From sequence record NC_023693.1: a stretch of 64,000 nt of DNA. One strand, 5' to 3'. The notes beneath the pieces were generated by a model that was not told the origin of the DNA, did not search any database, and saw only the letters and a program-made list of their open reading frames with translations. The translations under genes were made by a program, and so were the position numbers. Positions 61,808 through 63,223 of the stretch are shown one piece after another (the first letter of the stretch is position 1; each line of letters begins with the position of its first letter). The DNA is from Escherichia phage phi92.

Positions 61808-62200
61808 ATGGCAACTGGAATTTCTTTATCAAACTACCGCCAGGAATTTGGACACCTTGTTCTGGGTGGAGTATTTAGTTCTGACCTAGGTCACTGTGTT
61901 CGTGAAGTGAACCTGGTTAAAACTGCAACCATGAAAATTGGTTCTGTACTGAAAGCTGACAACACAGAAGCTACTGCTGCTGGTGAAGCTGTTAAAGTTC
62001 TGCTGTGGACTGACGCACTGTTCGGGATCGATGATGTTGCAGTAGGTGACACTTTCACCGCAGTTGTTGGTGTACGTGACCTGACTCTCAACCGCTATGC
62101 AGTTTACTACAAGAGTGGTGATCTGATTGATGACGCTGGCGTTGCAGCACTGGAAACTCACGATCTGAAACTGACTGAAAAAGTTGTTTTCACTTCTTAA
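61808..62200 (+). CDS. head decoration-like protein (position-based)
   Basis: 130 aa, AAGGAGA SD, immediately upstream of major capsid gene; strong high-expression codon bias. Confidence 0.4.
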   Translation: MATGISLSNYRQEFGHLVLGGVFSSDLGHCVREVNLVKTATMKIGSVLKADNTEATAAGEAVKVLLWTDALFGIDDVAVGDTFTAVVGVRDLTLNRYAVYYKSGDLIDDAGVAALETHDLKLTEKVVFTS

Positions 62201-62221
62201 TTTTTAATAGGAGATTTATAC

Positions 62222-63223
62222 ATGCCAGCTATTATCTTAGATCAGGTTGTTGACTTTAGCCCAATGATTGAGCTACAAGAAACTCCTGATACACTTATCG
62301 CAAGTCTGAACCTGTTCGATGTTCAGTACCATGCTACCACTGCTATCGAAATTGGCAGACAGAAAAATGCAGATGGTCTGATCCCAGCACGTGAACGTGG
62401 TGGTGAGCGTAACTTCCTGACTATGGACGCTCCTAGCGTTAAAGTCTTCCGTATTCCGTTCTTCCCTCTGGATAAGAACATTAAGGCACAGGATATTCAA
62501 TCCTTCCGTAGCTTTGCTATGGGTGGCATCAATGATAACCTGCGTACCGAAGCGGAAGTTGTTAACCGCTATATGACTCAAATCCTGCGTGATGTTGCAA
62601 AAACTAAAGAAAAAATCTTTGCAGAAGCAGTGATGGGTCGTGCATACAATGGTGTTGGTGGTGCAGCTAACTCTGCATACGACTGGTACACCGAATGGGG
62701 TGCTTCCCAGAAATCAGTATCTGTAGATTTCTCTTCTACTACTGTTTCTCCGGCTGCTACCATTGAGCAAGAAGCTCGTGCATACATCATCGATCAGAAA
62801 CAAGACGGTTCTACCGCTACTCGTATCGTTGCTCTGTGCTCTCGTGAGTTCTTTGCTTCTCTGGTTAACTCTCCGTTTGTTCGCCAGGCTTATCAATACT
62901 TCCAAGGTACTCCGAACCTTCTGCGTGACCGCCTAAGCGGTAATATGGACGTTCAGGTATTCGAATGGAATGGTGTAACCTACATCGAAGATATCCACGG
63001 TAACATCCCTGCTGGTGAAGCGTTTGTTCTGCCAATGGGTATCCCAGATATGTTCCAGGCGCACTATGCTCCAGCGGATACTCCAGAACTGGCTAACACT
63101 GTTGCTCGTGATCTGTATACCTTTATGGTATCTGAACACCGCACTGTACAGCTACAGTCTGAATTCTCCCTGCTGGCGGTTAACACCCGTCCAGAACTGG
63201 TAGTTAAACTGACTACTGCTTAA
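62222..63223 (+). CDS. major capsid protein
   Basis: 333 aa; markedly host-optimal codon usage (CTG, CGT, GGT, CCG) unlike surrounding AT-rich genes; followed by strong terminator. Confidence 0.65.
   Translation: MPAIILDQVVDFSPMIELQETPDTLIASLNLFDVQYHATTAIEIGRQKNADGLIPARERGGERNFLTMDAPSVKVFRIPFFPLDKNIKAQDIQSFRSFAMGGINDNLRTEAEVVNRYMTQILRDVAKTKEKIFAEAVMGRAYNGVGGAANSAYDWYTEWGASQKSVSVDFSSTTVSPAATIEQEARAYIIDQKQDGSTATRIVALCSREFFASLVNSPFVRQAYQYFQGTPNLLRDRLSGNMDVQVFEWNGVTYIEDIHGNIPAGEAFVLPMGIPDMFQAHYAPADTPELANTVARDLYTFMVSEHRTVQLQSEFSLLAVNTRPELVVKLTTA

Follow-up and report, generated by a model that had tools for sequence, protein, structure and literature searches.

A 64,000-nucleotide (nt) stretch of the genome of Escherichia phage phi92 (sequence record NC_023693.1), referred to here as the window, carries towards its end two adjacent head genes whose codon choice differs from that of the other genes in the stretch. 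They encode a predicted head decoration protein and the major capsid protein, and together they fill positions 61808-63223, an interval that opens with the decoration start codon and closes with the capsid stop codon; the codon shift occupies the same span. The two genes, of 130 and 333 amino acids (aa), and the signals that flank them are as follows:

61793..61798, plus strand: Shine-Dalgarno sequence AAGGAG, 9 nt before the decoration ATG, read from the sequence
61808..62200, plus strand: head decoration gene, 130 aa (phrog_2680 'head decoration', E = 6.7e-39)
62209..62213, plus strand: Shine-Dalgarno sequence AGGAG, 8 nt before the capsid ATG, read from the sequence
62222..63223, plus strand: major capsid protein gene, 333 aa, lambda gpE-type (Pfam PF03864 Phage_cap_E, E = 1.8e-39)
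63240..63276, plus strand: intrinsic terminator, a hairpin with a stem of 13 base pairs (63240-63270) followed by a T-run, directly 3' of the capsid gene and at the edge of the codon island

The capsid protein matches PF03864 with 136.2 bits against a gathering cut-off of 22.9, its residues 14-331 aligning to profile positions 7-328 of 329, and it also matches the major head protein family phrog_29. Residues 8-130 of the decoration protein align to positions 2-127 of the 129 in the PHROG 2680 profile, a near full-length match; its gene lies immediately upstream of the capsid gene and is labelled head decoration in phage VEcB and relatives. 'Head decoration' is the annotation name of the family, and the function of the protein is a predicted one. 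The interval is 99.9% identical to the corresponding region of Escherichia phage VEcB (NC_052663.1), a phi92/phAPEC8-like myovirus of about 148 kilobases placed in Justusliebigvirus, Stephanstirmvirinae. Wrong gene calls or reading frames are excluded by the Pfam and PHROG matches and by the VEcB annotation.

Adaptation to the host was expressed as the codon adaptation index (CAI), with weights derived from 31 MG1655 genes for ribosomal proteins (r-proteins), the elongation factors (EF) EF-Tu and EF-G, and RpoA (5222 codons; S10, spc, alpha and str operon region). The derived log weights correlate at 0.98 with the E. coli table of Sharp and Li, which served as a cross-check. Within the window, 125 open reading frames (ORFs) of at least 40 aa, taken from the dominant strand of each block and giving 91% coding density, were compared. 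The capsid gene ranks first (CAI 0.672) and the decoration gene second (0.640), while the other 123 ORFs have a mean of 0.351, a standard deviation of 0.074 and a maximum of 0.534, which places the two genes about 4.3 and 3.9 standard deviations, respectively, above the rest. They again take ranks 1 and 2 among the 254 ORFs of the whole VEcB genome. The E. coli r-protein and EF reference genes span 0.55-0.84, and both phage genes lie within this span, in its lower-middle part; 21 further E. coli genes of that chromosomal region score lower (0.24-0.54). The original observation, made from the sequence, required these two genes to exceed their neighbours in CAI; they do so by a wide margin, with the r-protein weights and with the Sharp and Li table alike.

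The codons responsible can be named amino acid by amino acid. CTG supplies 74% of leucine codons in the two head genes versus 11% in the rest of the window, and CGT 70% of arginine codons versus 40%, with CGC providing a further 26% in the head genes. GGT rises from 56% to 77% of glycine codons, a difference that is not significant for this single codon. For threonine the dominant codon is ACT (66%); ACC stands at 29% versus 10% elsewhere, and ACA falls to 6% from 47%. For proline, CCG reaches 25% versus 9% elsewhere and CCA is commonest at 50%. The head genes also gain ATC, AAC, TAC, TTC and CAG, and lose TTA, TTG, CTT, AGA and ATA. Contingency tests for individual amino acids are significant for leucine (p = 5e-29), threonine (8e-8) and isoleucine (1e-5), and also for glutamine, arginine, asparagine, phenylalanine and tyrosine. 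The claim that CTG, CGT, GGT, CCG and ACC are used almost exclusively thus needs tempering: the first three predominate, CCG and ACC are minority codons, and no codon comes near exclusive use. The contrast drawn with an AT-rich codon choice elsewhere is accurate, the remaining window using TTA for 29% of leucine, ACA for 47% of threonine, AGA for 26% of arginine and ATA for 17% of isoleucine. The shift favours the optimal codons of E. coli, of which many end in T (ACT, GCT, GTT, TCT, CGT, GGT). It is no simple GC shift, because GC content at third codon positions (GC3) is only 0.33-0.40 in the two genes, against 0.20-0.32 in their late-block neighbours. Local GC content reaches 0.455 in 62001-63000, compared with 0.33-0.40 elsewhere, and much of this rise comes from codon positions 1 and 2.

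The bias depends neither on the amino-acid sequence nor on GC3. When each protein was held fixed and its codons were drawn from window-wide usage in 5000 simulations, the capsid gene had an expected CAI of 0.34 and an observed one of 0.67 (z = 15.7), the decoration gene 0.36 and 0.64 (z = 8.6), and no simulation reached the observed value. The same procedure gives z = 5.0 for the scaffold-like gene upstream, 1.3 for the portal gene and 0.5 for the gene downstream. With the class of the third base, strong or weak (S/W), also fixed, which parallels the GC3 control applied by Lucks et al., the head genes retain z = 10.8 (capsid) and 5.4 (decoration). The bias is also specific to the highly expressed genes of the host. 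Three codon models were compared by mean log2-likelihood per codon, one built on E. coli r-protein and EF genes, one on 20 ordinary genes of E. coli and one on the phage background. The capsid gene reaches -1.28 with the highly expressed model, versus -1.59 with ordinary E. coli and -1.58 with phage background, and the decoration gene -1.40 with the highly expressed versus -1.70 with the ordinary model. For the portal, scaffold-like and downstream genes the order of the highly expressed and ordinary models is reversed and the phage background fits best.

The edges of the island can be read against the surrounding genes, whose local order is terminase, portal, protease, scaffold-like, decoration, capsid and intrinsic terminator:

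56345-58429: large terminase
58527-60095: portal
60180-60671: prohead protease, Peptidase_S78_2, 163 aa
60674..61789, plus strand: scaffold-like gene, 371 aa, labelled 'putative scaffold protein' in the Phapecoctavirus ESCO5
63291-63659: gene next downstream of the terminator

At the 3' edge the change is abrupt, the CAI falling to 0.376 in the next gene. The 5' edge is graded because the scaffold-like gene is intermediate, with a CAI of 0.534 and rank 3 of 125. Within that gene the sliding CAI runs at 0.55-0.82, mostly above 0.63, from about position 61350 through its last third, a rise that is partly compositional in a region rich in alanine, glutamate and lysine. The shift originally described as sharp is therefore so at the 3' end and gradual at the 5' end.

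The terminator that follows the capsid gene is the top terminator-like site within 55000-64000. Folding of 63224-63290 gives a minimum free energy of -24.8 kcal/mol (z = -3.8 against shuffled sequences), and ESCO5 has a hairpin and T-run of different sequence at the equivalent position. The Shine-Dalgarno sites of both head genes are strong, and ESCO5 likewise has an AGGAGAT core upstream of both. No convincing late promoter was found upstream of 61808; a sigma-70 scan returned 20 matches compared with 25.4 in shuffled sequence. The opening 30 codons of each head gene (61811-61900 and 62225-62314) depart from what follows: 27-28% are poor codons (weight w < 0.25), versus 4-8% later (p = 1e-3 and 3e-3), the codons in question being TTA, CTA, GGA, TCA, ACA, CAA, CCA, CTT and AGT. 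This matches the known tendency for the starts of coding sequences to favour initiation over elongation speed.

The island is conserved in related phages. Between the window and ESCO5 the terminase-to-capsid block has 77% nucleotide identity and the two head genes 84.7%, and the ESCO5 orthologues of these genes have CAI values of 0.663 and 0.650. The proportion of synonymous differences (pS) from ESCO5 is 0.48 in the capsid gene and 0.36 in the decoration gene, versus 0.51-0.75 in 12 neighbouring structural genes. In those neighbours synonymous sites are near saturation, yet the bias of the head genes has been kept. In a comparison of 14 gene pairs, a higher CAI goes with a larger share of conserved residues encoded by the identical codon (Spearman 0.83, p = 2e-4).

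Among structural genes, CAI follows the expected abundance of the products in the virion: capsid, decoration, scaffold, tail sheath, tail tube and then minor parts. In VEcB the values are 0.675 for the capsid gene, 0.64 for decoration, 0.53 for scaffold, 0.50 for sheath and 0.45 for tube, with the remaining structural genes at 0.26-0.43, mostly 0.26-0.40. The rV5-like Vequintavirus AlexBoehm has 0.72 for capsid, 0.61 for tube and 0.58 for sheath, about 0.56 for each of protease, decoration and scaffold, and 0.27-0.43 for other genes.

Very probably, the island reflects translational selection, favouring host-optimal codons in the genes for the virion proteins made in greatest abundance. Decoration and capsid proteins would be needed in hundreds of copies per virion and for many virions per burst, and would probably dominate late phage translation. 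Synonymous sites would then have been drawn, by selection for rapid and accurate elongation, towards the codons read by the most abundant tRNAs of E. coli, namely CTG, CGT, GGT, ACT/ACC, GCT, GTT, TCT, ATC, AAC, TAC, TTC and CAG, moving the head genes away from the A-ending, AGA and ATA codons favoured elsewhere by AT mutation bias. We infer high expression, and with it expression level as the cause, from the expected capsid stoichiometry, from the ribosome-binding sites and from mass spectrometry of rV5 virions, in which the homologous capsid and decoration proteins have the highest peptide coverage (83% and 85%; PMC3606486). Selection for very high translation, as originally proposed, is thus supported by the CAI, by the fit to the highly expressed model, by conservation in ESCO5 and by the abundance gradient.

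Other origins of the pattern have to be set against this. Next to no probability attaches to an artefact of amino-acid composition or of the index, in which richness in alanine, glycine, valine and threonine lifts GC content and might inflate the CAI. Overall GC in the head genes (0.45-0.46) does climb far more than GC3, so that part of the bump comes from amino-acid content, and the CAI of the scaffold-like gene is partly compositional, its simulated mean being 0.43 versus 0.34-0.36 for other genes. For the two head genes, however, composition is ruled out by the fixed-protein randomisation, in which none of 5000 simulations attained the observed values, and the synonymous shifts are significant within leucine, threonine, isoleucine and other amino acids taken singly. 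A mosaic origin, with the decoration and capsid genes recombined from a higher-GC phage or host and the shift a leftover compositional signature, is very unlikely. It would account for the GC peak in 62001-63000, for the abrupt 3' boundary and for the head module keeping somewhat more codons identical with ESCO5 than saturation predicts. Yet GC3 remains low while T-ending optimal codons are favoured, the 5' boundary is graded through the scaffold-like gene, CAI grades with expected abundance across the structural genes, and the same genes are biased in Justusliebigvirus, Phapecoctavirus and Vequintavirus, where gene order is conserved. A compositional origin by horizontal transfer is rejected by the randomisation within GC3 classes (z = 10.8 and 5.4) and by the better fit to highly expressed than to ordinary E. 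coli genes, and is contradicted by the presence of the island in three genera.

Selection at the level of the mRNA is a stronger contender than either of these, albeit still an unlikely one. Transcript stability or structure, sensitivity to RNase E or Rho, or avoidance of AT motifs in an abundant late transcript might have shaped the codons, the resemblance to E. coli being partly incidental. The island is bounded by a strong terminator, and the retention of poor, AT-rich codons in the first 30 positions shows that mRNA-level constraints do act here; such effects are not separable from those on elongation by the present analyses. The shift is nevertheless codon-specific within GC3 classes and, with the exception of proline, matches the preference of E. 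coli r-protein genes amino acid by amino acid. The choice of ACT/ACC over ACA/ACG, of GGT over GGA/GGG and of CTG over the five other leucine codons is what the tRNA pool predicts, and the highly expressed genes of the host carry the same pattern.

Several points weigh against translational selection. Nonsynonymous divergence (dN) from ESCO5 is also low in both head genes. A test of saturation, in which observed fractions of identical codons were compared with those expected from the bias, found that the genes from protease to capsid (60180-63223) exceed the prediction by 0.14-0.19, whereas most other structural genes do so by 0.01-0.09. Saturation under bias therefore explains part of the low synonymous divergence and was rejected as its whole cause; the remainder could reflect a head module whose shared ancestry is more recent or that was exchanged more recently between genera, or additional site-specific constraint. 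Proline codons, with CCA at 50% and CCG at 25%, depart from the host optimum. High expression of the two head genes in this phage is deduced, as noted above, and the CAI lumps selection on elongation together with selection on other mRNA properties tied to the same codons and cannot separate the two.

The relationship of the head genes to the phage's own tRNAs bears on the same question. The window contains the following cluster:

51625..54544, plus strand: 15 phage tRNA genes (ARAGORN)

The idea that phage tRNAs offset a codon mismatch with the host has been discussed for rV5 (PMC3606486). The present cluster resembles that proposal in that its tRNAs with U at anticodon position 34 (U34), namely Leu-UAA, Leu-UAG, Ser-UGA, Thr-UGU, Gly-UCC, Gln-UUG and Pro-UGG, read the A-ending codons TTA, CTA, TCA, ACA, GGA, CAA and CCA, which the phage uses often and which are poor codons in E. 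coli (w = 0.01-0.23). It differs in that the head genes mostly avoid these codons, which make up 15-18% of their leucine, serine, threonine, glycine, glutamine and proline codons compared with a window median of 39%; CCA is the exception, an A-ending codon that the head genes do not avoid. A further difference is that their C-ending favourites also match phage tRNAs, AAC, TAC, TTC and ATC being Watson-Crick cognates of phage tRNAs with GNN anticodons as well as of host tRNAs. The head genes are not cleanly decoupled from the phage tRNAs, because these C-ending favourites match phage and host tRNAs alike; full decoupling was rejected on this ground and on that of the CCA exception. It is possible, if rather doubtful, that a division of labour exists, in which the bulk of phage genes would rely on the phage U34 tRNAs and the head genes would be tuned to the major tRNAs of the host, neither competing for the phage supply nor depending on it, with the 'slow' 5' stretches of about 30 codons forming part of the design. 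The evidence for such an arrangement is the codon pattern, and the functional partition itself is a putative reading of it.

The tRNA count itself differs between sources, ARAGORN calling 15 where the VEcB annotation has 13; the extra calls include Met-CAT at 51625 and Ser-TGA at 52019. At 52508-52583 ARAGORN reports an anticodon of two bases, 'tt', at a position just before tRNA-Tyr that is occupied by an annotated tRNA-Lys-TTT in VEcB. Of the two further Met-CAT genes, one may encode an Ile2 (lysidine) tRNA that reads ATA.

The island in the head genes is an instance of an already known rule. Under the CAI framework of Sharp and Li, highly expressed E. coli genes reportedly show codon bias together with a reduced synonymous rate. 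The phage genes resemble such genes in preferring r-protein and EF codons and in the drop of synonymous divergence as CAI climbs; they differ in being viral, in lying in a background of roughly 37% GC and in their CAI of 0.64-0.67 versus 0.55-0.84. Among phages, Lucks, Nelson, Kudla and Plotkin (2008) found the head proteins of 74 phages to be significantly biased towards host-preferred codons after like controls (PMC2266997). Their result is reproduced here in several respects: with E. coli as host, head-gene CAI exceeds that of non-structural genes after control for amino acids and GC3, the bias is stronger in head than in tail genes, and both types of randomisation lead to the same outcome. 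It differs in extent, since in the present case the effect is concentrated in two adjacent genes and does not extend over the entire structural arm, where the majority of tail, baseplate and fibre genes lie at or close to the genome average; as far as checked, the phi92-like family also falls outside the 74-genome set of that study. A further parallel is with the head modules of rV5-like phages (Vequintavirus) and Stephanstirmvirinae, which share the order terminase, portal, protease, scaffold, decoration, capsid and the same codon island. The sheath and tube genes of the rV5-like phage are strongly adapted (0.58 and 0.61), whereas those of the phi92-like lineage are moderately so (0.50 and 0.45). 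A literature search found no paper describing the codon island specifically in phAPEC8/phi92-like phages, and no usable triangulation number for phi92-like capsids.

As regards the host, the codon signal indicates an E. coli-like tRNA pool, 'enterobacteria-like' at the finest resolution, and agrees with the database matches: 131 phage records match 61808-63223 at 80% identity or more, and nearly all are E. coli phages. The hosts of relatives include E. coli, Salmonella and Klebsiella, which the signal cannot split. The suggestion that the codon shift helps to assign host range is thus sustained for the type of tRNA pool, which the matches confirm, and fails for the distinction between these three hosts. 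Some matching records carry other host labels. Among MG065639.1, MG065656.1, MG065650.1, OR584014.1 and OP562383.1, those labelled Campylobacter phage have 98.9% and 84.6% identity to the interval, 98.9% being the value for Campylobacter phage A150 and C3; Pseudomonas phage PsgM04F has 86% and Acinetobacter phage ABPW7 85%. Either the Campylobacter, Pseudomonas and Acinetobacter labels are doubtful or the codon signal is not diagnostic.

High CAI is also found at a few positions beyond the head module. The top gene of the window outside it is 39407-40291 on the minus strand (CAI 0.51), which encodes a 294-aa protein of phrog_724, 'exonuclease recombination-associated'; its codon usage suggests that the predicted product, a recombination or replication factor, may be highly expressed. 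In VEcB, the gene at 106416-107012 (minus strand; 198 aa, phrog_5698) has a CAI of 0.62, making it the third most E. coli-adapted gene of that phage, and the gene at 93472-94419 (phrog_4477) has 0.57. Both are candidates for very abundant non-structural proteins.

Two neighbours of the head genes raise points of annotation. The ORF at 60180-60671 is called 'DNA methyltransferase' in VEcB and in phrog_1530, yet it matches Pfam Peptidase_S78_2 (E = 2.6e-11), the XkdF-type prohead protease family, and lies between the portal and scaffold genes. Given this match and position, the public annotation is probably wrong. The large terminase (56345-58429) is 694 aa long, compared with 515 aa in its rV5-like homologue, and its Walker A motif, GGAAG/SGKS, is interrupted at the point marked by about 158 aa (insert roughly 56471-56944); the rV5-like protein has an intact GGAAGSGKS. 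The insert begins with Cys, ends in VTGN and is followed by Ser. It looks like a mini-intein and is a candidate for one; Pfam called no Hint or intein domain in it. The terminase of one relative is annotated as 'large terminase with endonuclease'.

Beyond annotation the codon island has little importance, and as a host predictor it is coarse. It does, however, independently single out 61808-63223 as encoding the virion proteins of greatest abundance, and in phage genomes without annotation such islands help to spot the capsid and decoration genes. They also indicate which genes would suffer most from codon de-optimisation or from transfer to a host whose tRNA pool differs. The phi92 head genes offer an instructive case of translational selection working against a strong AT mutation pressure, in a phage with tRNA genes of its own.

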